A stretch of DNA of 64,000 nucleotides from Mobula hypostoma (Eukaryota): assembly GCF_963921235.1 (NCBI RefSeq), contig NC_086107.1, positions 110,672,001 to 110,736,000 on the forward strand. Reading direction: 5' to 3'. The position numbers and the translations under genes are program-made. Positions 3,650-59,209 of this stretch are shown here, piece after piece. The notes beneath the pieces were generated by a model that was not told where the DNA came from, ran no database searches, and saw nothing but the letters and a program-made list of their open reading frames with translations. Within the stretch, counting starts at the first letter, position 1. The number at the start of each line of letters is the position of its first letter.

Positions 3650-4211
3650 CACTAAGTTGCTCCTTTATTAGACATCTCCTGTACCTAATAAAGTGGTCAC
3701 CTGGTGTTTATTCATGGTCTTCTGCTGCTGTAGCCCATCCACTTCAAGGTTCAATGTGTTGTGGGTTCAGAGATGCTCTTCTGCACACCACTGTTGTAAT
3801 ATCTGGTTATTTGAGTTACTGTTGCCTTCCTGTCAGCTTGAACCAGTCTGGTCATTCTCCTCCGACCTCGCTCATTAACAAGGCATTCTTTTACCCACAG
3901 AACAACCGCTCACTGGATTTTTTTCTTGTCTTTCACACTATTCTCTGTAAACTCTAGAGAGTGTTTTGTGTGAAAATCCCAGATCAGCAGTTTCTGAAAT
4001 ACTCAAATCACCCCGTCTGGCACCAACAATCATTCCACAGTTGAAGTCACCTAGATCACATATTTTCCCCATTCTGATGTTTGGTCTGAACAACAACTGA
4101 ACCTCTTGACCATGTCTGCATGCTGTTATGCATTGAGTTGCTGTCACATGATTGGCTGATTAGATATTTTCATTAATAAGCAGGTGTCCCTAATAACATA
4201 GCCACTGAGTG
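3650..4211 (-). mobile_element. Tc1/mariner internal-deletion derivative inserted in a CR1 fragment
   Basis: TA-flanked TIRs (CACTCAGTGGCCACTTTATTAGG-like). Encodes MGKICDLGDFNCGMIVGARRGDLSISETADLGFS..TLSRVYRE, a Tc1 transposase N-terminal HTH. CR1 sequence resumes on both sides. Confidence 0.85.
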
Positions 4212-9650: not shown

Positions 9651-10344
9651 GAAGGATTTGTTGGTCTTATGGGCCAGCACAGTCGTGTAGCAGTTGCCAT
9701 AATGCCGAAGCTGTGCCAGCGACCCAATTTCAGTTCCTGCTGCTGTCTGTAAGGCATAAACACAAGAGATTCTGCAGACGCTGGAAATCCAGAGTAACAC
9801 ACACACAAGGTGCTGGAGGAACTCAGCAGGTCAGGCAGCATCCATGGAGAATCTGAATCAGGTTTAATATCACCGGCATGTGCCATGAAATTTGTTGTCT
9901 TTGTGGCAGCAGTCCATTGCAGTACATAATAATAGAGAAAAAGGTTGTGAATTACATATGTGAAAAGTATATACATTGTGAAAAGTATATATATATACAA
10001 AGTATATAAAATAGTTAAATTAAATAAGGGGTGCAAAAATAGAAATAATAAAGTAGTGAGGTCGTGTTCATGGGTTCAATGTGCATTCAGAAATCAGATG
10101 GCAGAGGGGAAGAAGCTGTTCCTGGGTCATCGAGTGTGTTCCTTCAAGGCTTCTGTACCTCCTTCCTGATGGTAGCAATGAGAACAGGACTGGTGAAGGG
10201 TCTCGCTCCGAAACGCCAGCTCTTTATTGCTTTCTATAGACGCTGCCTGACCTGTGGAGACCCTCCTCCAGGTTTATGTGTGTGTCTGTAAGGAGGTTGT
10301 GCGTTCCCCCCGTGACCACCTGGGTTTCCTCTGGGTCCTCCACT

Positions 10345-12008: not shown

Positions 12009-12829
12009 GTGGATCCCAGGTTGGGTCTGTAGGCTTTATTCAGTAATCATTTCAGAGTTGAGGTGAGTGAAGTTATCCGCGCTAGTTCAGGAGCCTGATG
12101 GTTGAGGTGTAATAACTATTCCTGAACCTGGTGGTGTGGGACCTAAGGCTCCTGTACCTCCTTCCCGATGGCAGGAGCGAGAGGAGAGCAAGGCCTGGAT
12201 GGTTACATGTGGGGTGGGGGTTCCTTGATGGTGGATACTGCTTTCTTATGGCAGTGGTGGAAGGTGCTTTGCCCATGATGGACTGGACTGTATCACCAAA
12301 CCTCCTGATTGGCGAATATCCTCCAGATTTTGTGTGTGTTCCTCTGGATTTCCAGCATCTGCAGAGCATCCTATGCCCCTGATTGATGACCCAGCGGTAG
12401 TGGAAATAGTCATTCACTCCAGGAAAAATAATTTTGAATGGCAGCTGCTGAAGAAAGCAGAACTCTGCAACTGAATTGCAAGCCTGCACTGCTTTTGTGG
12501 ATGTTATTTAATCCTCCGGCTCGCTCAACACCCTTGAGGGATGCCCAGGTGCTAGTGGGCACTCATTCCACTTGCCCAGTGCAATGAGACGCAAGGCTGA
12601 CGGCTGGTTCTCCATCACAGCAGCTCGTCCCTCCCGCCGAGTGCCAATTATTCCTGGATCAATAGCAGCGGCAGCTGCGCGCACACGTAACCCAGAGAGC
12701 CAGATTTGGAATGTTCATGTGCACCTATGTGTGAACATGTGAGATAGTCAGTGTGCAATGCAGCTGAGAAACTGGAGTTGGAATTGACCTTAAAAGGCAG
12801 GGAATTCTTCATTTTGCTTCCTCTGTAAT

Positions 12830-16091: not shown

Positions 16092-16770
16092 AAAAGGAGG
16101 AGGAGAAGATGGTGGTGCGACGCAGCGCGCCCGGCCGCTCTGAAATGATATCATATTTGTAAGTAGGTACTGTGCACAATCCTGACTTGATGCAGACAGA
16201 CGTGAGAAGCACGGAGGAGCATCTGGAGGAACTTCTGAAATGCCCACTTCGCTGCCGCTGCTACTGTGCGATCGAGAATCTCCGGAGGGGAAGGCCCCAA
16301 ATCCTCGGCTTTGCCTATTGCCCGTTGTCGGGGTCGAAGCGCTCGGCAGGGATGGTGCTCGGTGCTCGGTGTCGGAGGGCTGGCCCTAGGCTCGAAGTTT
16401 TCGGACGGACTCAGGGTCGGACTGTGGTCGGATGTTTCCAGGGTGCTGCATCAGCAAGTTTGCGGCACTGGAGGTTCATGGCAGGGAGAGTTTTTCTTCC
16501 TTCTACCGTCTGCGTGAGATGTTGGGGCTATCGGGACTTTGAGACTGTTTTTTACCGTGCCCATGGTCTGTTCTTTATCAAATTACAGTATTGCTTTGCA
16601 CTGTTGTAACTATATGTTATAATTATGTGGTTTTTGTCAGTTTTTCAGTCTTGGTTTGTCTTGTGTTTCTGTGATATCATTCTGGAGGAACATTGTATCA
16701 TTTCTTAATGCATGCATTTCTAAATGACAATAAAGGAGGACTGCGTGTCCTCATAATCTAATCTAATCTA
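16092..16770 (+). mobile_element. ~680-bp non-autonomous retroelement (GC-rich head, (AATCT)n tail)
   Basis: 7-bp TSD ATCACTC (16085-91 / 16771-77); full-length relatives at 52810-53440(-) and 60330-61005(-). Confidence 0.8.
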
Positions 16771-17069
16771 ATCACTCTCTGTCAGACCGCACGCCGCCTT
16801 CACGCACTGACTCCGATGCCTTCCTGTAGCAGGCAGTCACACAGTCCGCACCAATTCCATCTCCTCCAGCTCCTCCACCAACAAGTAGCTCGCTCTCAGG
16901 GTAGACCTGCAGTACCTGAAGCCTCCCCTCCTGTATAGCTGCAACAGGCAAGCCCGTGGCACGAGACCTACTCCTCCTTCAGACCCAGGATAGATCTTCA
17001 GAGATGGGTCAATGGTCCACTGAGTTCTGTCACTTCGTCAAGCATCAAGTCTCAAGGGCATATTGACCT

Positions 17070-17410: not shown

Positions 17411-18281
17411 TTCATGAATGGGACTTGGCAGCTGAAACATAATGTGGGAAAATGTTTTGCTATCCACCTTGGCAGAAGGAAAAAGCGATACAACATCCTT
17501 TTTTTAAAAATTGTGTGAGATTGAAAGTAGTTTAGAATGGTTGGGTGTAATGGACACAGATATACAGAAGTAAACATCTTACTGTGACTACGTAGAGCCT
17601 GCCGATATTCCGTCTGAATTACTGCGCATAATTCTGTACTCGGTATCCAAAGCACATTGTATTTACAATAGCAACACACACAAAATGCTGGAAGAACTCA
17701 GCAGGTCAGGCAGCATCTATGGAGAGGAATAAACAGTTAATGTTTCTGGCTGACACCCCCAATGAAGCCATTACCTGGCCACCCGTTTGTCTTGTGGCAG
17801 TTTTGGTCTGTGTTCCGCCGCTAGTTCTGAGCACCTTCATAGTGATTCATTTGCCTTGGCTGAATAACAATGCTCACCGCCTCAGACCTAAAAACAGTAA
17901 GCAAATTCAAGGCTGGCACAAATGAAAGGAATCTGTCAAGTACTGAGTCCAAGGTACTTGTATCCCTTAAGACCAGGCATTTTTAAATAGACTCCAGCCC
18001 GCACGAGGGATGGATCATTTCCTTCACACTTCACATCTCCTCTCTCAAAAAGTGCCGTGGTTGATTTGGGAGGTTGGAATGGAAGTGTGTTCTCCTAGGA
18101 GCTGGTGTCACTGTAGTATTAAGTCCTAAAGCAAGCCTCCTCAGAAGTGTCTTGTGCTGTGTTGACACCGGTGTCTCAAATCACAGTCACTGGAGCTGTG
18201 CCCCGAGGCACAGTAGCCTGTTGCCGATTTTTTTTCCCAATAATTTGTCTGCTGTGAAGTCTTGGAAATAAGGGTTCTTTT

Positions 18282-18963
18282 AACACACATCAAAGTTGCT
18301 GGTGAACGCAGCAGGCCAGGCAGCATCTCTAGGAAGAGGTGCAGTCGACGTTTCAGGCCGAGACCCTTCGTCAGGACTAACTGAAGAAAGAGTGAGTAAG
18401 AGATTTGAAAGTTGGAGGGGGAGGGGGAGATCCAAAGTGATAGGAGAAGACAGGAGGGGGAGGGATGGAGCCAAGAGCTGGACAGGTGACTGGCAAAAGG
18501 GATACGAGAGGATCATGGGACAGGAGGTCTGGGAAGAAAGACAAGGGGGGGGACCCAGAGGATGGGCAAGGGGTATATTCAGAGGGACAGAGGGAGAAAA
18601 AGGAGAGTGAGAGAAAGAATGTGTGCATAAAAATAAGTAACAGATGGGGTACGAGGGGGAGGTGGGGCATCAGCGGAAGTTAGAGAAGTCGATGTTCGTG
18701 CCATCAGATCCCTTTTGCCAATCACCTGTCCAGCTCTTAGCTCCATCCCTCCCCCTCCTGTCTTCTCCTATCATTTTGGATCTCCCCCTCCCCCTTCAAC
18801 TTTCAAATCCCTTACTCACTCTTCCTTCAGTTAGTCCTGACGAAGGTTCTCGGCCTGAAACGTCGACTGCACCTCTTCCTAGAGATGCTGCCTGGCCTGC
18901 TGCGTTCACCAGCAACTTTTATGTGTGTTGCTTGAATTTCCAGCATCTGCAGAATTCCTGTTG
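18282..18963. mobile_element. Penelope-derived fold-back insertion (inverted pLTR arms) carrying two hammerhead ribozyme motifs
   Basis: 13-bp TSD TAAGGGTTCTTTT (18269-81 / 18964-76); arms ~18282-18505 and ~18710-18930 are near-perfect reverse complements. Confidence 0.85.
18833..18868 (+). ncRNA. Minimal type-I hammerhead ribozyme motif (Penelope-type)
   Basis: AGTC-CTGACGA-AGG(ttctcgg)CCT-GAAAC-GTC^GACT: stem I AGTC/GACT, conserved core, stem II AGG/CCT, palindromic ACGT stem III. Mirror copy on the - strand at 18343-18378. Confidence 0.75.
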
Positions 18964-19254
18964 TAAGGGTTCTTTTGAACGTTTTCTTTTAAACTCCAAT
19001 TCTGAGAATGTTCAAGTAAAAACTGAAATGAGGTTAATAAAAGAAATGTTTCCTTTGATATGTCAACAACCAGCGGTTCTTTGACTCATTCTGGGAAAAC
19101 CAACCAGACCATGATCTGTGCCGTCTTGAGAAGCTCCATGTGAAAACCTTACATTGTTTCAGAGAGAGAGAGAGAGAGAGAGCTGGACCTCTGAATCAGC
19201 CACTCTTTCAGATACAGGAACTTATTTGTAATGTGGGCGTTGGTGGCAAATCCA

Positions 19255-19845
19255 TGCTTATGTTGAAACTTTATAAAACTGTTTTAAGGCCACATCTCAA
19301 GTATTGCATGCAGTTCTGGTCGCCTCATTTTAGGAGGGATGTTGAGGCTTTGGAGAGGGTGCAGAGGAGGTTCACCAGGATGCTGCCTGGTTTAGAGGGC
19401 ATGTACTGTCATGGGAGGCTCGATAAACTTGGGTTATTTTCTCTGGAGCGTCGGAGGCTGAGGGGAGAGAGGTTTACAAGATTATGAGAGGCATAGACAG
19501 AATGGACAGAGAGTATCTGTTTCCCAGGGGTGAAATGTCTAATACCAGAGGACATACGATAAAGGTGAGAGGGGGTAGGTTCAAGGGGGATGCGAGGGGT
19601 AAGTATTTTACTCAGAGAGTAGTGGATGCCTGGAATGTGCTGCCTGGTACGGTGGTAGAGGCAAATACATTAGAGGCTTTTAAGAGATGTTTGGATAGAA
19701 ACATGGATGTGAGGAAGATGGAGGGATATGGACATTGGGTAGCTAGGAGGGATTAGTGTTTGAGTGTTTTTGATTTGCTTTTTAGCTGGGTCAGTACAAC
19801 ATTGTGGGCCAAATGGCCTGTTCCTGTGCTGTACTCTTCTCCGTT
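19255..19845 (+). mobile_element. CR1 LINE 3' region
   Basis: LYKTVLRPHLKYCMQFWSPHFRRDVEALERVQRRFTRMLPGL and NTRGHTIK...FTQRVVDAWN. Confidence 0.9.
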
Positions 19846-20039
19846 CTGTAAACATTAGAGGTTTCGCAGATGCTGGAAATCCAGAGCACCGCACACAAAA
19901 TGCCAGAGGTCTCAGCTGGTCAGGCAGCATCTATGGAGAGGAATAAACGGTGAACGTAGTTGAATACAGGCCAACAACCTCGAGTCAGATTAATTCCGAG
20001 TGTGGTTGCTGATGTCAGCAGCTTCAGATTTATCACGTG

Positions 20040-20546
20040 TGTGCTCAGTGGCTGCTTTATTAAGGACCTCCTGCCCCTAATAAAGTGGCCACTGGGTGTA
20101 TGTTCATGGCCTTCTGCTGCCGCAGCCTTTCCACTTCAAGGTTTGACATGTTGTGCGTTCGGAGATGGTCTAATACACACCACTGTTGTAACGCGTGGTC
20201 ATTTGAGTTACTGTCGCGTATCTGCCATCCTGAACCAGTCTGGCCATTCTCCTCGAACCTCTCACACCACACAAAACAAAAATAGAAAATGAGCTGCAGT
20301 TCTGTGGGTGAAAACGCCTTGTTGATGAGAGAGGTCAGAGGAGAATGGCCAGACTGGTTCAAGCTGACAGGAAGGCGACAGTAACTCAAACAACTACACA
20401 ATAGTGGTGTGTAGAAGAGCATCTCTGAACGCACAACACGTCAAACCTTGAAGTGGATGGGCCACAGCAGCAGAAGACCATGAACATACACTCAGTGGCC
20501 ATTTCATTAGGTACAGGAGGTACAGAATAAAGCGGCTACTGATCGT
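20040..20546. mobile_element. Tc1-derived fold-back (two opposed copies of the same element end)
   Basis: 20040-20262 and 20325-20546 are imperfect reverse complements of the segment seen at 3650-3880, each ending in a double-TIR mini-hairpin. Confidence 0.8.
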
Positions 20547-21845: not shown

Positions 21846-22054
21846 TCTCCCTAAAGCCCCCTAACGTATGTTCCTCCACTTCCACCCCCGGCAGGTGCAT
21901 TTCACGGATGGCACGATAGCATAGTTATTGCTTTGCAGCGCCAGCGATTCGAAGCTCGGAGGTCAATTCCTGTCACTGTCCTGTAAGGAGTTTATACATT
22001 CTCCCTGTGCGTGGGGTTCCTCCCACACTCTAAAAGACGTATGGATTAGAGTTA

Positions 22055-22277
22055 ACAACAGGAATTCTGCAGATGCTGGAAATTCAAGCAACACACATCA
22101 AAGTTGCTGGTGAACGCAGCAGGCCAAGCAGCATCTATAGGAAGAGGCGCAGTCGACGTTTCAGGCCGAGACCCTTCGTCAGGACTAACGAAGGGTCTCG
22201 GCCTGAAACGTCGACTGCACCTCTTCCTATAGATGCTGCTTGGCCTGCTGCGTTCACCAGCAACTTTGATGTGTGTT
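22055..22277. mobile_element. Short Penelope-derived hairpin insertion with hammerhead motif, inside a V-SINE
   Basis: TSD GTATGGATTAGAGTTA (22039-54 / 22278-93); ~90-bp inverted arms; complete hammerhead on the - strand (~22151-22188); the + arm lacks CTGA. Confidence 0.85.
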
Positions 22278-22554
22278 GTATGGATTAGAGTTAGTGAGTT
22301 GTGGCCGTGCTGCGTTGGGGCCGGAACATGACGATGCTTACCCGCTGGCCCCAGCACTATGCTCGCTGATTTGACGCAAACGCCACACTTCACTGTGGGT
22401 TTCGATATACATACATGTGATAAATGGAACTAATCTTTAGTCTTTAGTCATTCATGCAGAGGCCTGTTCAAATGTGGGGAAAGCGTTCTCTCCAACCCCC
22501 TTTCAGGCAGGAGCTCCAGGCTCCCACCTTCTTAATCTCCATCCAATTCTTCTA

Positions 22555-23060
22555 CCTTGTCCCGATCCAAAATGTCAACTGCCTACTTCCTTTCACAGAT
22601 CGAGACCGTATCTTGATCCAAAACATCAACTGTCCATTTTCTTCCACAGATCGAGACAGTGTCTTGACCTGAAATGTCGAATGCCCATCTCTTTCTACAA
22701 ATCGAGACCATGTCTCAACTCGAGACATCGACAGCCCATCTCCTTCCACAAATCGAGACCATGTCTCAACTCAAAACGTTGACTGTCCATCTTCTTCCAC
22801 AAATCGAGATCATGTCTCAACTCAAAACGTCGACAGCCCATCTTCTTCCACAAATCGAGATCATGTCTCAACTCAAAATGTCGACAGCCCATCTTCTTCC
22901 ACAAATTGAGACCATGTCTCAACTCAAAATGTTGACTGCCCATCTTCTTCCACAAATCGAGATCATGTCTCAACTCAAAACGTCGACGGCCCATCTTCTT
23001 CCACAAATCGAGACCATGTCTCAACTCGAGACGTCGACAGCCCGTCTCCTTGCACAGATG
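22555..23060 (+). repeat. 51-bp minisatellite, ~10 copies
   Basis: Unit ~tccacaaatcgagaccatgtctcaactcaaaacgtcgacagcccatcttct; gives the 17-aa QIETMSQLKTSTAHLLP periodic ORF. Confidence 0.9.
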
Positions 23061-24379
23061 CTGCCTGGCGCACTGAGTTCCTCCAGCAATTTGTTATTGG
23101 CTATTTCCACTTTGCTAATGGAAACAGTTCCCTCCTGGTCACCCCGCCATAATTTTGCACACCGCAGTTACCTCTCCCATCACCTCCTCCTATGATGTTT
23201 ATACTTAGGATTGGGATCTATTTACAGATCCCTCACTCACTGTTTACTATTTCACACTCGATAAGCCGAACGGCCTAATTCTGCTCCTAGGTTTCACAGT
23301 CTTACGGCCAACTCAGTTCCAAAAGAGATAGCCCTGTGTCTTGACAGACCACCTCATCAGGTTCAAGGTTGCTTAACGTCATTTCCCATACACAAGTGCA
23401 AGGGAGAATGAAATAATTGTTACTCCAGATCTGATGCAGCATAAAAATCGTCACTAGCCTTGCTCACAATTCCTTTGTACCCTCTCCTCTGCATCTTCAG
23501 AAGCGTTACAATGCTCCAGTCATGGTCTTCTGGTCCTTATCCTCCATGCACCTTAGCCAATAAAGACATGCCTTCTTCCCCATCTTGCCCACCTGTCCTG
23601 CTTACCTGCAGGAAATTTGTGAAAAACACCTTTTGTCAACAACCTTCTAAAATTCATCAACGTTGCTTCAAAGTTTCTTCTATTTATTTAGTGATACACT
23701 GAAATGGAGACACCTCTTTCTCCCTTATTAGAGAGAGAGAGAGAGAGCCTGTGGTATGTCGAATACCGGGTGAGCACATAGTCTTTGGAGTACTGCAAGT
23801 CTGTGTCTTTGCTGTTGCTTTGCTCGCGCTTGAGTGCTCGGTGGCGGGTGCCGATACTTTTTTTTGCCGGTGGGGGGAGGGGGGATCATTGCTTGCTGCT
23901 GCTTACGCGTGGGAGGGAGGGGAATGGGGGGGAGACTTTGGGGTTCTAACATTTAACTGTCATTTATTTTTGGGGCACTCCTCTGTTTTCGTGGATGGTT
24001 GCGAAGAAAAAGCATTTCAGGATCCAATAAAAGCATTTTGTTGAATATATTTCTCTGACATTAAATGTACTTTTGAAACTTTTTGAAACTTTGAAACAAT
24101 GTGGAATAGGCCCTTTTGGGCCTTCGAGACGTGCCGCCAACAACCCCCAGCAACCTTGATTTAACCCTAACTAATCTCAGGACAGTTTACAAGGACCAAT
24201 TAACCTACTGACTGGTATATCTTTGGGCTGTGGAAGGAAGCCGTATAAACCGGTGAAAACCCATGCATTGCACAAGGAGGATGCACAGATGATGTCAGGA
24301 TTGAACTCCAAACTTCGATGCCCCGAGCTGTAACAGCATCGCGCTAACTGCTGCTGTGGTGCCCAATGTAACTCCTTGT

Positions 24380-26490: not shown

Positions 26491-29400
26491 GAAGTTTCTC
26501 ATTTCCTTAATGAAGTTATATAACATCTTAGGGAATTTTCTTGACTTCACCTAACCATTTTCCCCTTCACAAACATGAGAAAATCTGCTGATGCTGGAAA
26601 TCCAAAGCAACACACACAAAATGCTGGAGGAACTCAGCAGATCAGGCAGCATCTACGGTAAAGAGTGAACATTTGATGTTTCGGGCCAAGGCCCTTTATC
26701 AGGATTCATGATAGGAAATGTCCTCTCCACGTCCACTCTACATAGCCCTTTCAATATTGAATAGGTTTCAATGAGATCCCACCCCGCCAACCTTCTAAAC
26801 TCCAGAGAGTACAGGCCCAGAGCCTTCAACGTTCCTCAAATGTTAACCCTTTCATTCCTGGGATCATTCCTGTGAACCTTCTCTGGATCCTCTCTGATGC
26901 CAGTACATAATTTCTTAGATAAAGGCCCAAAACTGTTCACAATACTCCAAGTGTGGTATATATGCACTTTCAAAAGTTATTTGATGAACTGCTGATCATT
27001 GGGAGTGGAGCCCATGAAATACAATGGCAGAAGCAAACTTGGTAAAAAATCAGCTTTCCGACAGGAGACAATGAATGAGAATGAGACTGGTGGGAAAGTT
27101 CTAGGGCAAGTGCTTTCCTTATTAGAACACTCAATGGCCACTTTGTTAGGTACAGGAGATCCTCAAACATATATACACACATATAAGTTTAGCTAGGGTC
27201 CCTAAGACTTTTGCACAGCACTGCAGTAATTTTATGCACTGCATTGTACTGCTGCCACAAAAGCAAAAACAAATTTCATGAGATACGTGAGCGATGATAA
27301 ACCTGATTCTGATATGGGTCTCTGTTGTGGTCTGAGAGTGGGAAGGGGGCAGGGAGAGGGGAATCATGGTTGGGAAAAGGGGAAGAGAGAGGGGAGGGAG
27401 TGGGATGACATTCTGTAATGATCAATAAACCAATTGTTGGGAACCAAAACACCTTGTCTGGTGTCTCAGGGCTGGGTGTGTCTGCACCCACACCACACCC
27501 TGCCTCCCCTTCTCTGCAACCTGTCCCACCTCCCTCCCAAGTGCCCACCATTCCCAACATCCTTTGCTCCCAGCAGATTTACAAACTCATTCTCCGCCCC
27601 GTGTTGACAAATACAGTACTGTGCAAAGGTTTTAGCGATATATATGTGCCTAAGTCGTTTGTACAGTTATGCACATGTAGTAGGGTTTTGTTGTGGTGTG
27701 TTGATCCATGCAGACCATGCGACACAAAACAACATTCAACAATGATAAAGAATTAGATAAAAATAAAGTTAGAGTTTAAAGTATAGATATGGAATAAATA
27801 CCAGTGTGTATTTACAATGTAAATAACATTATAAAAAGTGGTGTAAAGTGTTTACAGAGCAGTGACTGATGTAATAGATAGAGGGACTGGGTGGGGCGGG
27901 TGGCTAACTAGAATGGTTAATCAGATTAACTGCTTGGGAGAAGGACTTTTAAGTTGGTGTGAAGTTTTTTGTTGTAATAGTCCTATAATGTTTTCCAGAA
28001 GAAAGCTTTTGGAAGAGGTCATTTGCTGGGGTTGGTAGCAATGGCAATGATGTCTTTTCCTGCTGCTTCTTTGTCCTGCACTAGTTCAAGCTCAGCTGGA
28101 CAATTATGTCCAGTCCAGGCCAGCATACTTTTGGGAAAATGTGAATGTTTTAGAGAGGATGTGGATTTAATGAAAACAGAGCATAGAACTTAGAACAGTA
28201 CAGCACAGGGACAGGCACTTTGGCACACAATGTTGTGATGAACGAATAAAATTAGCCATCAAATGTATAACTAAACTGATCTCTTCTGTCTGCACAGTGT
28301 CCATATTTTTCAATTTTCCTCACATTCATGCGCCTATCTAAAGGTTCTTTAAACATCTCCAATGTTTCTGCCTCTACCATCACCCCATGCAGCGTAATCC
28401 AGGCACCCACCACTCTCTGTGTGAAAAACTTGCCCCTCACATCTCCGCCCGGTCCGCTGGAGCTGACTTCGAATGCTAGGACAGGCATGGGAGGTATAAA
28501 GAATGAAATACACAGGAGTTTGGTATTTTCACATCAGGATGGGACTGGCTGGGTTATTTTGACACTGATCCAGTACTGACTCATTGGGCCAAGAGGCCTG
28601 CCTCTGGGCTGTAGCTGTTTGGCAATTCCATGATTTCAACTTATCTCTAATTGTGCTCTTGATGTCAATCATATTTTTTATTGCTCTATCCCGCTGAAAT
28701 TTCCTTGAATCCAAGCATTTAGGAGCATATCCCTTCCTCTTAACTTCCTGAATAATTGTCCGAATCCTTCAAACCTCCTCGATTAGATAGTTAGAATAGA
28801 CCAGCCATTACTGCACAGTACTATCCTTCTACAGGTCCTGATGAAGGGTCTCATCCTGAAACATCGAAAGTTTATTCCTCTTCATAGATGCTGTCTGACC
28901 TGCTGAGTTCCTCCAGCATTTTGTGTGTTGCTCTGGATTTCCAGCATCTTCTGCATCTGCTAAAGTCTTTTTGTGCGGGTCCTTCAGACCATGATGTTGT
29001 GCCTGCAGTATATTCCATATTTCAGTACTATTAATATATTGTTTCATTAAGCATTCTTTGTCTGTTTATATAATTCAGTATGGGCGGTACGTAAGAAGTA
29101 TGTGAGTAACACACTTCATTACATCACCACGTCATGTGTGAGCACCTCACTGAAAGAAGCAAAACTAAGTAGATATGAATCCCGGCTCCCCTGTTTTTCT
29201 TTTGCTTAGTTTCTGGAGTTACAAAACATAACAGTGGCCATGAGTAAGTCTTAAAACAAACCCGAGATGACTACCTACCTGTTGAAGTGGAGCACGTTTT
29301 TCTTCAGAAGGGAAGAGAGGCATCCAAGTTAAAAAAAAAAGGCAGAAAATAGACAAAGTTAACAAGCAGCATACAGAGTTTATAAACAGTGAGTGCCAGG

Positions 29401-32400
29401 TGATAATAATACTTAATTAAAAAAGCAGAAATGGCTGGTTACATTGGAAAGATTGATGCGTTCGATTGCACAGCAGATAACTAGATTATGTGCATTGAGC
29501 AGTATGTTGAAGCAAAAAAAAAAGCTGATGAAACACAAGTACTGGTGTTGCTGAGTGTAATGGGTGGAAAAGCATAGAGTTTGCTTATAAGTTTACCTGC
29601 TCCAACTAAACCAGCTGAAATGAGCTTTGCTAATATTGTGCAAGGAATGCAGGGACATTTAGAACTGAAACCATTGTTGGTTGCAGAACGCTTTAGGTTT
29701 CATAAGTGGAGGGGAGTTCATTTCAGCTTACATGGCTGAATAGAAGAAATTGTATGAACATTGTCAGGTCAGTGATAGGCATAATGATACACTAGGAGAT
29801 CATTTAGTGTGGGGCATCTTACAAGAAAACATTCAGAAACATCTCCTAACTCACATTTAAAAGAGCAGTTGAAATTGCTGTATCAATGGAAACAGCAGCC
29901 AGGAATGAAAGTGAGCATGAACAAACCTGCAATGTCTAAACAAAAACTTGCCTGGTCGAACAACTTGTGTTACCATTGTGGGAGGGGCTCACTATACCAG
30001 ACCATGCAGATTTAATCGCAAAACTTGCATAAAATGCAACAGTTTAGGTCACATGCAAAGAGCATAATAAATGGACTGCACAGTGAAGGGAAAAAGATGA
30101 AAAGTCATATTGCAGTTGCAAAAGGAGCACTAATCTGCATGCTGTTGATGAGAAGTCTGATAATGATGAGAGTGACACAAGACTGAGTAGTCTTGAGATT
30201 TACAACGTGAAAACTAACAAGAGATTAATAATATGGCTTACACCAGAAGTGAATGGAAAATTAATTAAAATGGAATTGGACTCTGGCTTGGCAGTTTCAG
30301 TCATTCCACAAAAAGAAATAATAAGGCATTTCAAAGATGCTAAACTGAAGCCTGCAGGTGTTCAACTAAGAACTTATACCAAAGAAAAGATGACTCTTGT
30401 GGGAATAACATTCGTAACAGTGAAATATAACAACCAACAAGCCATACTGGGCTTGTATCTGGTAAAAACTGAAGGATCAGCATTACGGGGCTATGATTAG
30501 CTGACACAACTACAACTTGCTTGGAGATCCATCCACCATTTGCATACCGCATTCCCTGCAATAGAGTGAACTGAAAGTGAATTAAGAAGGTACTGGATGA
30601 TGCTACAGCAGTGTTCAAGGATGGCATTGGAAAACTCAATCATATCAAGGGTAAAATAGTGTTAAATGAAAATGCCTCACCCACATTTTACAAAGCCCAT
30701 CCGGTTCCTTATACTGTCCATGATAAAGTAGCCAGTGAGCTAGATCACATAGCTGAATGAATTCCTTCCAAAGTTGAGGGGAGTCCATGGACAATGGAAT
30801 ATCTCTGCAAACCTTTCTGGAGGGAAACATTTCAGCAAAGTGGACTTAGCTGAGGCCTACCTACAGATGGAGATGGAAGATGAGTCCAAAGTGTTTCTCA
30901 CCATAAACACTCAGTATATTGCTATAGTAGGCTTATTTTTGGAGTAGCATCTGCACCTGCACTCTGGCAAAAAGCTATGGACCAGGTACTGCAAGGCTGA
31001 CCAGGCACTCAGTGTTACCCAGATGACATCATTATTGCCAGCGAGGATGACAAGGAACATCTCCAAAATCCCAAGACAGTGTTAAAAAGATTAGAGGATT
31101 ATGGGCTCAGATCATAACATGGCGAGTGTGATTCTTTAAACCAAGCATCACTTACTGTGGTCACACTATTGGTGTACAAGGATTACGCAAGTGTGCTGAG
31201 AAAATTTGAGCAGTGGTGGATACGCCGAGACCAAAGGACGTGTCAAAGTTGGAGTCCCTTTAGAACTTGTCAATTGCTATAACAGGTTCCTGCCAAACCT
31301 GGCTGCTGTGCTCCAACCCTTGAACTCATTACTACATATGGGGAGGAAATGGCAATGGACAAAGCAGTGTGAGGTGGCTTCCTGAAAGACAAATGAAATG
31401 GTGAGGTCAGACACTGTGCGCACACATCATGATCCACATCATCCAGTGAAACTTGCCTGTGATGCTTCACCTTTTGGTATAGGTGCAGTTCCGTCACAAG
31501 TTATGTGCGATGGAAGTGAACGTCCCGGAGCCTTGGCATCACATTCCCTTACTGCTGCAGAGAAAAATTGCACACAGATTCATAGGGAGACCTTCAAACT
31601 TGTGTGGGAGAGAGTTTACTCTCTTCACTGATCATCAGCCACTGGTGTCCATTTTCAGTCCACAGAAGTGTGCTCCACGAAGAGCAGTAGCACAAGTGCA
31701 GAGCTGGGCCCTGTTCCTAGGAGGACACAATTACAAGTTCACATTCAAGAGGAGAACTAATCCTGGAAGTGCTGATAGATTGTCCCTTTTACCCTTGGAA
31801 AAGGAAATACCTGAAAAATTCACGAAAGAGGACACTCCTCTCGATGTGTTCTCCTTAAGGCAAATCAAAAATAAAAAATCTTCCTGTTATGGCAGAGATG
31901 ATCCAAAGGGAAACTAGGAAAAGGCCCCACACTGTCTCAGGTCTACTTGGCAACCCAAAATGGCTGGAACGTGCAGCAGAAATTCCATTTCCCCCATTTT
32001 ACCAATGCCGGGGTGAATTTGCCCTTGACAGGGGTTGCCCTATATTGTGGATTGAGTGTCCTTGTACCATCCAAGCTAAAGTATTGGTGGAGCTTCATGC
32101 TGGTTATCTAGGCATGGCCAAAAAGAAAATATTGGCTTGGAGCTTTGCCTGGTGGCCTGGGATAGATCAGCAGATCGAGCAGCTTGCCATGCACTGTTTG
32201 GGATGTCAGCACGTCCAGAAGATGCCAAGAGCAGTATCCCTCTAGCCCTGGAAATGGCCTGCATTGCCCGGCAGAGGATTTGTTTGGATTTTGCTGGACC
32301 ATTCATGTCCTCAAATTTCTTGGTAGTCATGGATGCAGCTACAAAGTGGCCTGAAGTGTTCCCAATAGCCTCCACGACAGCCTCGCACACTGTTGATGTC

Positions 32401-32639
32401 CTGAGAAGCCTCTTCTCAAGGACTGGTGTTCCAGAGCACTTAGTCAGTGACAATGGACCACCGTTTGTTGTGGAACATTTCAGTCAGTCCTGAAAATAAA
32501 TGTAATTAGATGTATTACATCTGCATTGTATCACCCAGCTACAAATGGCTTGGCGGATAGGTTTGTCCAGACTCTCAAGAACGCACTGTGAGTAATGTTA
32601 GCAGAACACACTGCGCTGACACTGAATCAGAAGCTCACC

Positions 32640-38657: not shown

Positions 38658-41594
38658 AAATTCATCCTGTTACTTCCATTGCTTCCTGCCAGACAATGAA
38701 TCTAACTTCATTATAAATGCAAGAGAGCAATGTATGTGAGATAACATTGTATTGGCATCAGGGAGAATGGGAAGTGTTAAAGAAACACTTCAATCCCATC
38801 TTGGAAGCTTATGAATTGCCTGATGTTTGTTGGATATACTGTTACACCTCGATCCGTGGCTAAATCATTGGAGAGGGCAGGAGAATGGGGTCGAGAGGGA
38901 TAATAAATTAGGAATGATGGAATGGCAGAACAGACTCGATGGGCTGAATGGCCTGATTCTGCTCCTTTGTCTTATAGTCTAAATGTAAAATCCCTAGCTT
39001 CTATCAGAAGTGAGTTCTCACAGAGTAATTTAAGTCTGTGTGGAGCAATGCCTTTTGAAGTGTGGTATGTCTTTTGAAGCAGCATGAGATGGTAAATTTA
39101 AGGTTCATATTGTACTGTGTATTCAGGCCGTGAAGCAACAGCATTGTTAAAGTCGTTCCAATTCCCATTCAGATTTAGTTAGTGCATGCATATGTTAACG
39201 TGCAGTGAAATGTGTCGTTTGCCTCAGCAACCAACACCCCCAAGACGTGCTGGGGGCAGCCCGCCAGTGTCCCCACACATGCCAGCCCCACCATCGTGTG
39301 GCCATGATGCTCGGCAGAACAACACAAACTGCAACAGCAGCAAAATAAAGCAACAACAGTGAAACAAGCTCCTTTCCCACCCTATCTGACACACACAGAC
39401 AGATCCTACTCCTCAACCATCGGGTTCTAGGACTAGAGAGGACAACTTCACTTGCCCCATCACTGAACCACTCCCACCACCTATGGACTCACTTTCAAGG
39501 ACCTGTCATCTCATGTTCTTGTTTTTTTGCTTAATTAATAATAATAATAATAATAATTATTATTATTTTTTCCCTTTTTGTATTTGCACTGTTTGTTGTC
39601 TTTGCACATCGCTGTTTGTCTGTCCTGTTGGGTGTGGTCTTTCATTGATTCTATTGTGTTTCTTGTACTTACTGTGAATGCCCGCAAGAAAATGAATCTC
39701 AGGGTTGTACGTGGTGACATATACTGTACTTTGATAATATATTTAATTTGAACTTTGAACTTTGTGAAGCATTCTACTACAATATTGTATCACATCTGTG
39801 GTAAATACTGTGTAGGACAAACATCCTCTGAAAAATGAAGAAATTTCTTCCACTGTTGTGCAGCTTCTGGAAGGAATTATTCCCTGCAGATACTTAGTGC
39901 TGCCCTCCAGTGTTTGCTCAGTGGACACTGTCATTCAGGGGCTTGGGCTATATTACCTTTTTTATTTTGTGAATGTATGTTTTTCCGAAATAACCTTATG
40001 TGTTTTTTGTGCTGTGTGCTGTTGGTAACGTGTTTTGCACCTTGGCACCAGAGGAACACAGTTTTGTTTGGCTGTATTGAATGATAATTAAACTTGCACT
40101 TGAACTCCTTTAGGCTGTTGATCATGGAGTGGGGAGCAGGTGTGGAATAACTGGGGGGAGCAGAGAAGGCTTGTTTGGACAGGAAAACAGAAACTCTGGG
40201 GACTGATAAACAGCATCAGACATGTGTAGAGGGATCAGGGTTCTGGGTCAGACAGTGGTCGAAGGGTTAGCATTGGACTTCAGCATCAGGGATCGAGGTC
40301 AGAAGGGTTTGGACAGCAGGATTAGTTGTTGCGAGAGCATATATGAATTTGAAAAGATTACCTTTATTTGTCACACGTACAGCGAAATATGTAGTTAAGT
40401 GCTTCATTCGGGTCAAATCAAATCTGCGAGGATTATGCTGGGCAGCTGATTGGAGGATGGGCTGAATGCCTCCTTGGAAGAATTGTAACATCTCTGCTGA
40501 TTCCAGGGGGTGAGTGGCTTATGGCTGCTGAAAGTGTGGATGAAGCATTTAAGATGGCCACATGTTAACAGTGGAAGGGGTGCACAAATGACCTATATGC
40601 CTACCTATTGGCACCTCCGACCTCAGAATCCACAGATCTTCAGTGGATTGTCCTCTTTGATCTGGGAGAGACTGACAAAGATGGTATAAGACCATCAGAT
40701 ACAGGAGAAGAACTTAGCCATTCAGCCCATTAAGTCTGTTCCACCATTCCATCATGGCTGATTTATGTTCTCTCTCAACTTCATCTTCCTGCCTTCTCCT
40801 CATAAACTTTGACTAATCAAGAACCAATTGTCCTGCCCATTAAATACTGTATAGCCAATGGATTGGTCCTAGACTCCCCCACATCCTCTCTATGTCCACG
40901 CTATCTAGATCTTTCAATATTCAATAGGTTTCAGTGAGATCCCCCACCCCCAGTTCTCTAAACTCCAGTGAGTACAGGCCAGAGCCATCAAACACTCCTC
41001 ATACCCTTTCATTTCTGGGATCAACCTCATGACCCACCTCTGGACCCTCTCCAATGCCAACAGAGGTCCAAAACTGCTCAGAGTGCTCCAAGTGAGGTCG
41101 GCCCAATGCCTTATACCTCCTCAGCATTGCATCCTTGCTTTTATATTCTAGTCCTCTCAATGCCAGCATTGTCCTTTCTTAGATATGGGCAGCATGGTAG
41201 CGTGGTGGTTAGCACAACGCTTTATGGTACCAGCGATTCAGGCCACTTTTCCTCGTGACCATGTGGGTTTCCTCTGGGTGCTCCGGTTTCCTCCCACAGT
41301 CCAAAAGATGTACTGGTTGGTAGGTTAATTGGTCATTGTAGGTTGGCTCACGATTAGGCTAGGGTTAAATCGGGCGTTTCGTTGAGCGGCCTACTCTATG
41401 CTCTATCTCAATAAATAAATAATACCTTGCAAAGTTGGTCTTGAACCTTTGGGATTTAGATGGCAGATTTTCCATACCATTTAATATTGCTCCTATTAAT
41501 ACATCAAGTTTAATTTGCTGTTATTTACGTATTACACAATAGTGTAAGGGGTTTAGTTTAAAATGAGCATGAGAAATAAGACTTTGATATATAA

Positions 41595-41983
41595 ACTCTT
41601 CTTGGGGCTTTCAGCCGGGTCCAGGTGTTGCTCTTAACTGATGTTTCGATGACAAACTCTGCCGTCTTCATCAGGGATGATACCTAGACATGTCTAGTCC
41701 AGTGGTATATGTACTCAACTTCAGCCTTCCATCCGCCTGATTGGTTAGTCCTCAACCAATCAGATTTCTGCTCTCCTGGTTGAGAACTAACCAATCAGGT
41801 GGATGGAAGACAGGAGTTGAGTATATTTACCACCAGACCAGACATGCCCAGACATCATCCCTGATAAAGATGGCAGAGTTTGTCCTTAAAACATCAGTTA
41901 AAGTTGCCACCTGGACCCTGCTGAAAGCCCAAGAAGAGTGTATGTGTCATATACACCGGGGAAACACCAGGTCCTTTTCCAGG
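41595..41983. mobile_element. Fold-back Penelope-type pLTR pair (third family) with hammerhead motif
   Basis: 41595-41760 vs 41777-41939 are inverted. The - strand reads CTGATGA-AGACGGCAGAGTTTGTCATC-GAAACATC. Degenerate TSD gactttgaYatat on both sides. Confidence 0.75.
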
Positions 41984-43639: not shown

Positions 43640-44190
43640 CACTCACTGGTCTCTGTATTAAGTCCCTCCTGTATGTAATAAAGTGGCTGCTGAGGGCACG
43701 TTCATGGTCTTCTGCTGCAGTAGACCATCTGCTTCAAAGTTCCACGTGTTGTGCAATTGGAGATGGTCTTCTGCTCACCACTGTCGCAACGCATGGTTAC
43801 TTGAATTACTGTCGCCTTCCTATCATCTTGAACCAGTCTGTCCATTCTCCTCTGATCTCTCTCATTAACAAGGCATTTTCACTCACAGACCTGCTGTTCA
43901 CTGCATGTTGCTTTCTGTTTTTTTTTGCACCACTCTGTGAAACTCTAGAGATTATTGTACATGAAAATCCCAGGCGAACGGCAGTTTCTGAGATACTCAA
44001 ACCACCCAGTCTGGCACCAACAATCATTGCACGATCAAGGTTACTTAGATCACATTTCTTTCCCGTTCTGATGTTTGGTCTGAACAACAAATGAACCTCT
44101 TGACCATGTCTGCATGCTCTTATGCATTGAGTTGCTGCCACCTGATTGGCTGATTAGATATTTGCATGGACAAGCAGGTGTACCTAATAA
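43640..44190 (-). mobile_element. Tc1/mariner deletion derivative (same family as 3650-4211)
   Basis: GKKCDLSNLDRAMIVGARLGGLSISETA; TIR tacactcactgg... Confidence 0.85.
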
Positions 44191-44797: not shown

Positions 44798-45205
44798 ATG
44801 AAGATGAGGCACATGGGCTTGCAATTCCTGAAGGTTTTATTAATTCTCGTGTCTCATGTGGTTTGGGCGAAAGGGATCATGAAGAGCAACCCCACCCTGA
44901 ACATTGCCGTGATCCTCGGAGGCACATCCTGCGAGATGGACATCAAAGACGTTCTGAACAAAGATGACTTCCAACACTTGCCCATCGACCCCAACGTGGT
45001 ACAGGTCACGGTCAACGAGACCGACCCCAAGAGTATCATCACACGCGTGTGCGACCTCATGTCGGGGATGAAGATGCACGGCGTGGTGTTTGGCGATGAC
45101 ACCGATCACGAGTCCATTGCAGAAATTTTGGATTTTATTTCCGCTCAGACTATGATCCCAATTCTTGGAATACACGGTGGTTCTTCGATGATTATGGCAG
45201 ACAAG
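44798..45205 (+). CDS. GRIN2A: First coding exon of an NMDA-type ionotropic glutamate receptor GluN2 subunit (signal peptide + N-terminal part of ATD); GRIN2A favoured, GRIN2B not excluded
   Basis: Translation [26 protein letters not shown]...LNIAVILG...[18 protein letters not shown]...[10 protein letters not shown]...[26 protein letters not shown] matches GluN2A/2B. Acceptor ...ttctctattgcAG (44784-85) with a TTAAC branch-like motif at 44761. Phase-0 donor AAG/GTAAG at 45206 after ...MADK, the exon end known for GRIN2A/B. In-frame ATGs at 44798, 44804 (best Kozak) and 44813. Family call is very secure; paralog call ~0.6. Confidence 0.93.
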
Positions 45206-48334: not shown

Positions 48335-49139
48335 AGATAAAGAACACAATAATAAAAACACAATAAATATAAATACATAAGATCACTTATGTGCATAAAA
48401 TTGATTGAATGCACATAGGTAACGTTAGGTACAAGAGTGTTTGTACAAAAGGTAACTGTCAGGAGATGACAAAGTAGTGGTGGTTGGGGGTGTGGAGGGG
48501 TGGAGGTGTTGATCAGCTTTTCCGCTTGGGGAAAGGAACCGTTTTTGAGTCTGATGGTCCTGACGTGGATGCTTTGTAGCCTCCTCCCTGATGAGAGTGT
48601 TTTCCGATATCTGCAGAATCTTTTGTGTTATGGATTTCCTCCCGAGGTGATGATGTGCCAACTGATTGGACTGACATAACTACCTAACTGATTGATTATC
48701 TGAGGCCGCACAATGGGATGGATTGAGCTGGGCCAAGCACGGTGCCCAGAGTTGCAGCCTGTGCTCCCTGCCTCTTGATGCTCAGCTGGGCTCTATGTTT
48801 AAAGTTTCAAGTTCAAAGTAAATTTAGTATCGAAGTACATTTATGTCACCATATACTACACTGAGAAATATCTGCGTACTCTCCTGCCGAAGGGTTTCGG
48901 CCTGAAATGTCAACTGTTTACTCTTTTCCTAGATGCTGCCTGGCCTGCTGAGTTCCTCCAGCATTTTGTGTGTTTTACTATCCTGAGATTCATTTTCTTG
49001 CTGGCCCGCTCAATTAATCCAATGGCCACAATAGAATCAATGAAAGAGTGCACCAGCAGGGCTGATTAGAAAATTAGAAATAATAATAATGATATTATAT
49101 ATATTAATATACTGTATGTATTAATATATACACATTAAT

Positions 49140-55355: not shown

Positions 55356-55469
55356 GAATGTGTGGAAACCTTGGGTGTGTTGGTTGTTTACTAGCTTTTC
55401 CTTTTCAAATCTCAGGGCGAACTCTATCATATTGTAATCACTGCCTCCTAAGAGTTCCTTTACCTTAAT

Positions 55470-56610: not shown

Positions 56611-58435
56611 ACCGTCTTTTGGACACATTTCACTGTACGTGTGATAAACAAAATATGAATCTGACATCTATGTGTAGCCCCCAGTATTGATACATCGGAG
56701 CAGAGGCGAGGGTTCTGAGAGTGACCCGACCCGAGAGTGGCGCCGAAGCTCGTATAGCAAGCAAACACCCGTGCATGCACCACGGGAGTCAGGGTCACCT
56801 TCATTCTTAGGAACCTTGCCTCAGGATCCCTCCAGGCTGTCTCGGCTGGTTTGCCACACACGTCCAGGACTGTGTGAAGCTCTGCGCAGTCTCTGAAAAT
56901 CACAGCCTCTCCATTCGCTCCGACTCATTCAAGTATTAACCTCAGCTGTATCTCTAAAGCGACCAATGCCGAGGGCAATTAAACTAATATCTGTGCAACC
57001 AGAACAGCCAGCAGATAATTGGCCTGGGCTGCAGTGATTGACAGATGTGGCATCAACAGCTCCTTCCAAAGTCCTGACCTCTACTATTACAGACCCCTTG
57101 CTTCATGGTATTGGTCCATAGCACATAAAAAAGGTTGGGAACCCCTGACTGAGAAGAACAAAAGCCCAACATATATGTAGAACACCTAGTAATGAAACAC
57201 TAGTAATCAAAGTTTATACATCTAACCATATACAGCCCTGAGATTCATTTTCTTGCGGGCATTCACAGTAAATACAAGAAACACAATAGAATCAATGAAA
57301 GGCCGTATCCAACAAGATGGATAAACAACCAATGCACAAATACAGACAGAAAGAAAAAAGAAATAATAATAATAACACATAACCAATAACTATCAAGAAT
57401 ATGAAATGAAAAATCCTTGAAAGTGAGTCTATAGGTTGTAGGAATAGTTCGGAGATGAGGTGAGTGAAGCTGGGTGAAGTTATCCCCTCTAGTACAAGAG
57501 CCTGATGGTTGAGGGGTAATAACCGATGGTGGGGGTTCTAACGCTCCTGTACCTTCTTCCTGCTGGCAGTGAGAAAAGAGCACGGCCTGGATGGTGTGGG
57601 CCCCTGACGATGGACGCTGCTTTCTAGCGACAGCACTCCATGTAGGTGTGCTCAATGGCGAATAAAGGGAAGGCATTCGGTTAAAGAAGGCATTTTATGA
57701 GCTTTGAAGATAGATCATACAACATAGACTATGGAAGTGTACCGCATAGTACAGGCCCTTCAGGTCATGATGCTGTGCTGAAAATTAACCAACGCCAAGA
57801 TCAATCTAACCCTTGCTTGTCACCCTCCATTTTTCTATCATCCATGTGCCTATTTGAGAATCTCTTAAATGTTGCTAAATATCTGTGTCTACCACCAACA
57901 CTGGCAGAATGTGCTTACCACTTTCTGTGGAAAAAATCCTACCCCTGACAGCCCTCCCCATACTTTTCTCAAATCAGCTTAAAATTATACCGCTTCATAT
58001 TAGCTATTTTCGCCCTGGGGAAAATGTTTGGCCGTCCACTCTATCCATCCTCTTATAATCTTACACATCTCTATCAAGTCACCTCTCATCCACATTGTCT
58101 CCAAAGAGAAAAGTCTGAGCTCACTCAGTCTATCCTCATAAAATGTCCTTTCTAATCCAGGTGGCATCCTGGTTAATCTCCTCTGCACCCTCTCAAGTGC
58201 TTCCACATCCTTCCTATAATGAGGCAACCAGAACTGGACACAATATTCCAAGTGTGGTCTAAGCAGAGTTTTATAGACCATAAGACACAGGAGCGGAATT
58301 AGGCCATTTGGCCCATCGAGTTTGCTTCACCATTCAATCATGGCTGATCCTTTTTTCTCGCCTCCTCAAACCCAGTTCACGGCCTTCTCCCCATAACCTT
58401 TGATGCCATGTCCAACCAAGAACCTATCAATCTCT

Positions 58436-58735
58436 CAAACACGAGAAATTCTGCAGATGCTAGAATTTCAAGCAACACACATCAAAGTTGCTGGTGAATG
58501 CAGCAGGCCAGGCAGCATCTCTAGGAAGAGGTACGCCGATGTTTCAGGCCGAGACCCTTCGTCAGGACTAACTGAAGGAAGAGCTAGTAAGAGATTCTCT
58601 TACTCTTACTAAATCTCTTACTAGCTCTTCCTTCAGTTAGTCCTGACGAAGGGTCTCGGCCTGAAACGTCGACTGTACCTCTTCCTAGAGATGCTGCCTG
58701 GCCTGCTGTGTTCACCAGCAACTTTGATGTGTGTT
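58436..58735. mobile_element. Penelope-derived fold-back insertion with hammerhead motifs, inside a CR1
   Basis: 14-bp TSD ACCTATCAATCTCT (58422-35 / 58736-49); ~120-bp inverted arms. Confidence 0.85.
58639..58674 (+). ncRNA. Minimal type-I hammerhead ribozyme motif (Penelope-type), sense to the GluN2 gene
   Basis: AGTC-CTGACGA-AGG(gtctcgg)CCT-GAAAC-GTC^GACT with all core nucleotides intact. Confidence 0.75.
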
Positions 58736-59209
58736 ACCTATCAATCTCTGCCTTAAATACACCCAACAACCTGGCCTCCACAGCTGCCTGTAGCAACAAA
58801 TTCCACAAATTCACCAGTCTCTGGTTAAAGAAATTTCTCCGCATCTCTGTTTTGAATGGACACCCCTCTAACCCGAGGCTGTGCCCTCTTGTCCTAGACT
58901 CTCGCACCATGGGAAACATCCTTTCCAGATCTACTATGTCTAGGCCTTTCAGCATTCTGCAATGTTACCTTGCGGCTCTTGAATTCAATCCCCCGATTAA
59001 TGAAGGCCAACACGCCATAAACCTTCTGAGCCACCCTGTCGAAGTGCGTGGCAACTTTGAGGAATCTATGGATGTGGGCCCCATACTCTACCTTCAAGTT
59101 CGATCTTCCAAAGTGTACGAAGTGTGACGTCAAGAGCTGTGGCATGTAAGAGGGTGTGGTGGAGTCCTTTGGAAGAGATGTATCTCCACCCCACCACTCA
59201 ACTAACGTA

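Follow-up and report, generated by a model that had tools for sequence, protein, structure and literature searches.

Short hairpin insertions in a Mobula hypostoma sequence are probably doubly truncated ends of an abundant Penelope-like element

Three short fold-back insertions lie within a 64,000-nucleotide stretch of the genome of Mobula hypostoma (NC_086107.1, positions 110,672,001 to 110,736,000; hereafter the window) and are, with a probability that we put at about 0.82, dead-on-arrival, doubly 5'-truncated copies of a very abundant Neptune/Nematis-type Penelope-like element of a cartilaginous fish. The hammerhead motif that they carry is a passenger in the terminal repeat (pLTR) of this element, the part that is copied first.

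Three head-to-head insertions with exact target-site duplications

An earlier note on this DNA had described three separate insertions of one family (18282-18963, 22055-22277 and 58436-58735), each of them a fold-back of its own arm length set between clean target-site duplications of 13 to 16 bp. We indeed confirmed these coordinates, the fold-back structure (blastn self-matches with E values of 3.7e-101, 4.8e-87 and 2.5e-103) and exact flanking repeats of 13, 16 and 14 bp, a variability in length that is shared with endonuclease-positive Penelope-like elements. Exact direct repeats with matching length and spacing are found at 1 of 63,292, 1 of 63,745 and 7 of 63,672 window positions for copies 1, 2 and 3, respectively (the observed ones counted), and this rarity shows that the target duplications are not due to chance. 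The features of the three copies are the following, with hammerheads as called by motif scan in copy 1:

18269..18281, no strand: copy 1 left target-site duplication, 13 bp, exact repeat of 18964-18976
18282..18707, minus strand: copy 1 left arm (1L), 3'-terminal 426 nt of the element, without tail at its 18282 terminus, 5' truncation at 18707
18343..18378, minus strand: minimal type-I hammerhead of arm 1L, intact, predicted cut between 18347 and 18346
18670..18705, minus strand: last 11 codons and stop of the RT/GIY-YIG ORF in arm 1L
18708..18963, plus strand: copy 1 right arm (1R), 256 nt, tail-bearing, 96% complementary to 18282-18503
18833..18868, plus strand: minimal type-I hammerhead of arm 1R, core intact, one change in loop II
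18930..18963, plus strand: copy 1 tail, 34 nt, right arm only
18964..18976, no strand: copy 1 right target-site duplication, pairs with 18269-18281
22039..22054, no strand: copy 2 left target-site duplication, 16 bp, exact repeat of 22278-22293
22055..22189, minus strand: copy 2 left arm (2L), tail-bearing, with a 35-nt tail (22055-22089) and an intact hammerhead (22151-22186)
22188..22277, plus strand: copy 2 right arm (2R), tail-less, begins within the hammerhead core, strand without ribozyme
22278..22293, no strand: copy 2 right target-site duplication, pairs with 22039-22054
58422..58435, no strand: copy 3 left target-site duplication, 14 bp, exact repeat of 58736-58749
58436..58596, minus strand: copy 3 left arm (3L), tail-bearing, with a 38-nt tail (58436-58473) and a hammerhead (ca. 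58535-58569) with damage to stems III and I
58597..58610, no strand: copy 3 centre insertion, 14 nt, between the arms
58611..58735, plus strand: copy 3 right arm (3R), tail-less, intact hammerhead at 58639-58674
58736..58749, no strand: copy 3 right target-site duplication, pairs with 58422-58435

Aligned in one orientation, the six arms are all 3' ends of one element with different 5' cut points, and in all three insertions they face outward in a head-to-head inverted arrangement. At the outer termini of each insertion, the tail-less arm stops at one common base while its partner is longer by 34, 35 or 38 nt. The insertions had been called palindromic, but none is a true palindrome given that the tail sits on one arm only and that copy 1 additionally contains a 204-nt unpaired stretch, the upstream part of its longer left arm. 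The tail belongs to the shorter arm in copy 1 but to the longer one in copies 2 and 3. No centre joint is common to any two copies: The joint of copy 1 (18707/18708) is blunt and free of microhomology, copy 2 comes close to a perfect palindrome, its 2-nt centre being a microhomology at the joint, and the 14-nt centre insert of copy 3 consists of a snap-back copy of the left arm end plus a short repeat of the same sequence. This snap-back hairpin (58586-58604) has an 8-bp stem with a 3-nt loop, and the insert probably arose by templated end-joining.

The two arms differ from each other at 8/222 positions in copy 1, 1/90 in copy 2 and 5/115 in copy 3, so that the earlier description of the insertions as young holds loosely: They are recent, but not freshly inserted, with copy 2 as a perhaps exception. 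Variants that are common to both arms of one insertion and absent from the others (two in copy 2 and three in copy 3) imply that the three insertions stem from different source subfamilies. In copy 1, six of the eight arm differences look derived on the right arm, and this lopsidedness may reflect two different templates rather than one RNA. Inspected by eye, the arm differences are a mixture of G/A, C/T and G/T without an A-to-G excess that would be the signature of editing.

The parent element

The insertions had been thought to lack coding sequence, but on the minus strand, arm 1L starts within the element ORF, whose final 11 codons and stop it contains (18705-18670). With 11 residues, this ORF end is too short for a protein search, and we instead used the adjoining 129-codon frame after the stop, which retrieved a single protein among 613 candidates, the uncharacterized Mobula hypostoma protein P0001. 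Residues 359-369 of P0001 are identical to the ORF end at 9 of 11 positions, and the match extends to 49 of 54 positions when the sequence after the stop is included; P0001 continues past the stop into the terminal repeat that is found in the arms. Upstream of this end it carries a YIDD motif (residues 16-19), a CX4CxxC motif (236-244) and a GIY-YIG motif with an inner CxxC (272-288). The Pfam GIY-YIG model matches P0001 with an E value of 0.00046 at 20.9 bits, under its cut-off of 22.6, and comparisons with solved structures (best E value 0.67) and NCBIfam (0.1) gave nothing significant. Among 63 longer relatives of P0001, RVT_1 is found in 48, GIY-YIG in 18 and both in 13; none of them is a full-length protein of this exact family, the best identity being 52%.

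Sequences from two public runs (X1 and X5) lead further into the same ORF: Loose ends behind 18707 extend its frame upstream in 89 and 85 contigs, respectively, and their translation by eye agrees with P0001 in 10 of the 11 residues just before the 54-position match. When metagenome contigs were scanned with patterns of the ORF end and of the hammerhead, 0 stretches were returned in either case. In the window itself, a motif scan in six frames revealed no other remnant of the nuclease domain, its four matches all lying in an unrelated repeat.

The previously proposed Penelope origin is therefore borne out by a terminal repeat that is continuous with an RT/GIY-YIG protein, so that the condition named earlier for its refutation, arms without homology to such an element, does not apply. 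The proposed retro-insertion with target duplication is supported as well. The arms are 5'-truncated ends of a protein-coding Neptune/Nematis-type Penelope-like element. A CX2-5CxxC linker before the GIY-YIG domain and a CxxC inside it mark the Neptune and Nematis clades (PMC8557442, in excerpt), and it is P0001, not the window sequence itself, on which these marks are seen. The suggestion of a separate non-autonomous family was not supported, because the longest arm enters the ORF matching P0001 and each insertion has its own joint and subfamily variants. Different subfamilies, joints and tail placement point to independent truncation instead of amplification of a hairpin unit.

The family in public sequencing runs

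An arm of the family is present in 20 of 24 listed runs that span five organism codes, none of them on record as RNA. Using 18504-19300 as a query, 140,337 of 29,819,287 records matched in X1 and 114,555 of 34,216,178 in X5, nearly all of them within the element, and one contig per run accounts for most of the flank. The element family is very abundant, though the summed contig depth in these two runs is not a copy number. Run X1 may be the window's own source. The flank contig of X5, a run under another organism code, departs from the window by five letters plus gaps and still extends 22 letters into the tail, a hint (below the 31 letters required for bridging) that copy 1 is common to more than one species.

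Across family copies in these runs, the joint between 18504 and 18708 on opposite strands, which corresponds to the uninterrupted element, was found in 18 and 11 contigs; since it occurs in other copies, arm 1L is collinear with the sequence of the right arm. Among the 12 of 1,022 loose ends that were listed, those on the 3' side cluster at 18931-18932, the tail-less terminus, and at 18959-18964, the tail terminus, but with older subfamilies mixed in, these counts give no ratio of the two kinds of ends. Of the 15 joints listed out of 149, 5 clearly lead from antisense to sense as in copy 1, each at a place of its own and in a single contig; three joints ending at 18917 were excluded, as the alignment of an older subfamily begins there. 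The tallies of joints and loose ends are incomplete, with some of each left uncounted. As a rough estimate across family copies, ca. 8-12% of the summed contig depth shows changes at the CpGs of stem III and the cut site, and ca. 7-15% at CpGs outside the hammerhead core.

The hammerhead and its computed antisense lock

The arms had all been credited with a hammerhead. This is true for four of the six (1L, 1R, 2L and 3R), in which the motif scan indeed found the proposed minimal type-I form with palindromic stem III, i.e., conserved core, stems I and II and an NUH cut site, but not for 2R, which begins inside the core and lacks the 5' strand of stem I together with C3-G5, nor for 3L, in which both the stem III palindrome and the 3' strand of stem I are missing. 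An Rfam search of the insertions returned 0 hammerhead families among 25 matches up to E 5. The minimal form is defined by a descriptor rather than by Rfam (PMC4209133). The best Rfam matches were generic miRNA-hairpin models below their gathering scores, and annotators should mask these hairpins as retroelement ends instead of scoring them as miRNA precursors.

The idea that each ribozyme is sequestered by its antisense twin fared well in structure prediction. Stems I and II have a computed probability of 0.000 in each of the five full-length strands with a sense core, and imposing the hammerhead fold would cost 59-69 kcal/mol in fold-back strands versus 5-9 kcal/mol in the four intact single arms (arm 3L was left out because its fold forces non-canonical pairs). 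Single arms on their own are not predicted to favour the active fold either, with a stem II probability of at most 0.02. In the computed fold of the monomer, the hammerhead core (18833-18868 and its copies) can pair with stem III and the cut site of the same motif, which gives an alternative to the active form even where no antisense arm is present. Cleavage by minimal hammerheads as dimers has reportedly been described by Lunse and colleagues. The hammerhead dimer modelled here reaches -10.9 kcal/mol compared to -30.3 kcal/mol for the best dimer fold, i.e., it lies 19 kcal/mol above it in a nearest-neighbour calculation without tertiary contacts or Mg2+. Published minimal hammerheads are weak and need dimers or protein, as stated in PMC4209133, PMC6765202 and PMC11167929.

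The antisense lock is thus real in computation and would follow automatically from the head-to-head geometry: Since the arms face outward, any read-through transcript would contain the antisense arm first and only one sense ribozyme after it, which leaves the latter buried in the duplex with no partner in cis. On the plus strand, which is also the strand of the GluN2B-like exon described below, copy 2 is entirely without a ribozyme. The lock looks like a by-product and not like an evolved switch, and nothing suggests selection on the ribozyme or the lock in these copies.

Window context and other repeats

The window contains a coding exon:

44801..45205, plus strand: GluN2B-like NMDA receptor coding exon, best match GluN2B with an E value of 1.1e-44

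No further GluN2B-like exon was found among window ORFs of at least 120 aa. Copies 1 and 2 are located 22-26 kb upstream of this exon and copy 3 13 kb downstream of it, probably within the intron that follows, where its transcript could form duplex RNA according to the computed fold. The exon is flanked, one on either side, by a repeat that is present at 16161-16771 and 60332-60945 in opposite orientation, with 86-95% similarity over a distance of 43.5 kb.

Several older fold-backs and repeat remnants are found in the same window. An older fold-back at 41593-41982 belongs to a second hammerhead-bearing family, which looks unrelated to the first, and its arms are ca. 80% complementary; it is flanked by a 13-bp duplication with one mismatch (41580-41592/41983-41995), has an extension of ca. 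33 nt on the right arm only, and both of its hammerhead cores are damaged. A decayed fold-back at 47629-47788 (70%) belongs to an older subfamily of the first family's terminal repeat and is joined at its centre within the hammerhead; it is not flanked by any clear target duplication. Only 230 bp from copy 2, a tandem array of 51-nt units spans 22507-23110 (7.2 copies by TRF at 22676-23043). Its units look like the 3' half of the hammerhead region, none of them was found to contain a hammerhead core, and the array runs out into an old terminal-repeat end; it is a minisatellite grown from a Penelope-like end. In addition, there are at least eight single older fragments of the first family's terminal repeat, with and without tail, that show ca. 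77-89% identity where this was measured:

9769-9842, 10190-10290, 12329-12365, 17670-17718: terminal-repeat fragments
19866-19932, 26578-26704, 28824-28949, 48882-48974: terminal-repeat fragments (rest)

Other repeats comprise a 500-bp element with long terminal inverted repeats (78%) at 20045-20542, presumably a DNA-transposon miniature, with relatives at 3652-3874 and 43642-43864; a short fold-back (76%) at 55392-55556 within LINE-like reverse transcriptase debris, which is perhaps an inversion from LINE twin priming; and broken LTR-retrotransposon pol-like frames at 30087-32493 on the plus strand, in which protease-, RNase H- and integrase-like stretches are seen by eye.

Origin of the inverted arms

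For the way in which two truncated ends were joined, we favour, as somewhat better than an even bet, a series of staggered nicks, priming at two sites, an early stop and end-joining. The nuclease of the element would nick the two target strands 13-16 nt apart, and each nicked 3' end would separately prime reverse transcription within the pLTR RNA, one cDNA starting at the tail-less site and the other 34-38 nt further downstream. Both cDNAs would stop early, and their free ends would be end-joined head-to-head, bluntly in copy 1, via the 2-nt microhomology in copy 2 and with snap-back fill-in in copy 3. In copy 1, neither arm derives from the other by fold-back copying, because each has private sequence (the 204 nt upstream on the left and the 34-nt tail on the right), and in combination with the blunt joint, this argues that they were templated separately. 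For copies 2 and 3, the centres have the appearance of free ends joined together. Purified protein of a lizard element (PAc) cuts and extends both strands in vitro, starts reverse transcription at two internal sites bounding the tail and is a predicted dimer, and the hammerhead is dispensable for insertion in vitro (PMC11167929). Speaking against twin priming, PAc is of the Poseidon clade and showed no start-site difference between strands, from which a one-sided tail does not follow by itself (PMC11167929), the lopsided arm differences of copy 1 may point to two templates, and the joints of copies 2 and 3 are also compatible with self-priming. In the literature that we searched, mostly outside subscription papers, no direct statement of twin priming for Penelope was found, though it may be published.

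A strictly asymmetric form of twin priming, in which a dimeric RT uses the tail site on one strand and the tail-less site on the other with the same pLTR RNA, is a doubtful extension. The rule of one tail per insertion holds for all three copies and for one fold-back of the second family, and it would arise by chance in 1 of 8 cases, or 1 of 16 with the second family, if the sites were independent and equal. If asymmetric twin priming were true, every clean insertion would be a hairpin with exactly one tail and arms of a single subfamily, the origin of Penelope inversions would become a counting experiment given the large pool of copies in the ray, and the element would seed self-silencing double-stranded RNA at nearly every insertion.

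The most serious competitor of separately primed cDNAs is self-priming, in which a nascent strand would fold back on an antisense template, as proposed for rotifer Penelope elements, and the tail would result from nuclease resolution. This has been proposed in PMC3846280 and, for the tail, in PMC8557442 (both in excerpt), and it would account for the near-perfect palindrome of copy 2, the snap-back hairpin at the centre of copy 3 and the subfamily variants common to both arms, which fit a single template. We nonetheless regard it as unlikely, since simple self-copying fails to explain copy 1 with its blunt joint, a tail-less arm that is 204 nt longer upstream and a tail on the opposite arm, and since the tail ends coincide with the start sites of reverse transcription in vitro (PMC11167929). 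Much less credible is a family of non-autonomous fold-back mini-elements that are transcribed and mobilised as hairpin units in the manner of retrozymes or SINEs. All three copies are short with clean target duplications, no intact master element was seen in this analysis, sequences between pLTRs can be mobilised in trans (PMC3846280, in excerpt), and non-autonomous derivatives of Penelope-like elements exist (bioRxiv 10.64898/2026.07.22.740005, in excerpt). Yet hairpin units should share a centre joint, which none of the three copies does and which the scattered single-contig joints among 15 of 149 listed do not reveal either; the longest arm holds an ORF end, the tail changes between the shorter and the longer arm, and retrozymes are head-to-tail tandem arrays, which the insertions here are not.

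RNA editing of intronic inverted repeats is well established, and one may ask whether the hairpins are kept for a host function as edited or diced double-stranded RNA, e.g., in the GluN2B-like intron. Copy 3 is probably intronic with a computed fold of ca. -254 kcal/mol, and Penelope inverted repeats give rise to siRNAs in transformed Drosophila (PMC3681739, in excerpt). To be a substrate is not a function, though, and a function of this kind seems highly improbable: Arms are diverging (8/222 in copy 1 and 5/115 in copy 3), the older fold-backs have fallen to 80% (second family) and 70% self-complementarity as neutral decay predicts, and CpGs of stem III and the cut site have changed about as often as those outside the core. 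Finally, inverted repeats are known to cause assembly trouble for Penelope-like elements (PMC8557442, in excerpt) and no listed run contig spans a whole insertion, but we give hardly any credence to fold-back chimeras of assembly or sequencing, as chimeric reads do not produce exact duplications at both ends, arm-specific differences and one-sided tails, and a flank contig reaches into the tail in two runs.

Comparison with known systems

LINE-1 twin priming resembles the mechanism favoured here in that both target nicks prime and that the inversion is joined internally with microhomology, but its two cDNAs cover different parts of the RNA. In our copies both cover the same 3' region, and the product is therefore a hairpin. 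Inverted 5'-truncated copies with a one-sided tail of 30-40 bp are typical of Penelope-like elements, and the complex insertions of endonuclease-positive members share the head-to-head arrangement, the one-sided tail, 5' truncation, a target duplication and a hammerhead in the pLTR (excerpts of PMC3846280 and PMC8557442). The copies described here differ from these by arms so short that little but the pLTR is left and by target duplications of 13-16 bp compared to 8-10 bp in the rotifer examples given in the same excerpts. With Neptune and Nematis, P0001 shares the order of RT, CX4CxxC linker and C-terminal GIY-YIG domain with inner CxxC, whereas the targets here are not microsatellites (PMC8557442, in excerpt); the element may belong to either clade.

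PAc, the Poseidon element of Anolis carolinensis, is similar in its two internal termini bounding the tail and in the use of both target strands, and its hammerhead lies upstream of the start sites and is dispensable for insertion in vitro, a layout to which we liken the one seen here (PMC11167929). However, it belongs to another clade without the CX2-5CxxC linker, and its ORF starts inside the hammerhead, whereas by eye no ATG-led frame runs from the hammerhead through the tail in our sequences (PMC11167929). The candidate ribozyme itself shares the core, the short stem I and the loopless palindromic stem III with minimal type-I hammerheads of metazoan Penelope elements and differs by a stem II of 3 bp with a 7-nt loop; pairs of hammerheads on opposite strands at distances of ca. 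100-700 bp have been reported, and most motifs are truncated elements (PMC4209133, in excerpt). Non-LTR retrozymes are likewise hammerhead-bearing, non-coding and pLTR-related, but they are arranged head-to-tail with at least two sense ribozymes (bioRxiv 10.64898/2026.07.22.740005, in excerpt). We rejected this identity for our insertions, which are head-to-head with a single sense motif per strand.

The structure, the tail, the hammerhead, its opposite-strand pairs and siRNAs from Penelope inverted repeats are thus all already in print, while the origin of Penelope inverted structures was called still undefined in 2021 (PMC8557442, in excerpt). What the present insertions offer is a set of clean copies from a copy-rich genome, with target duplications that are exact and centre joints that can be read, and such material could settle whether Penelope inversions arise by twin priming or by self-priming.
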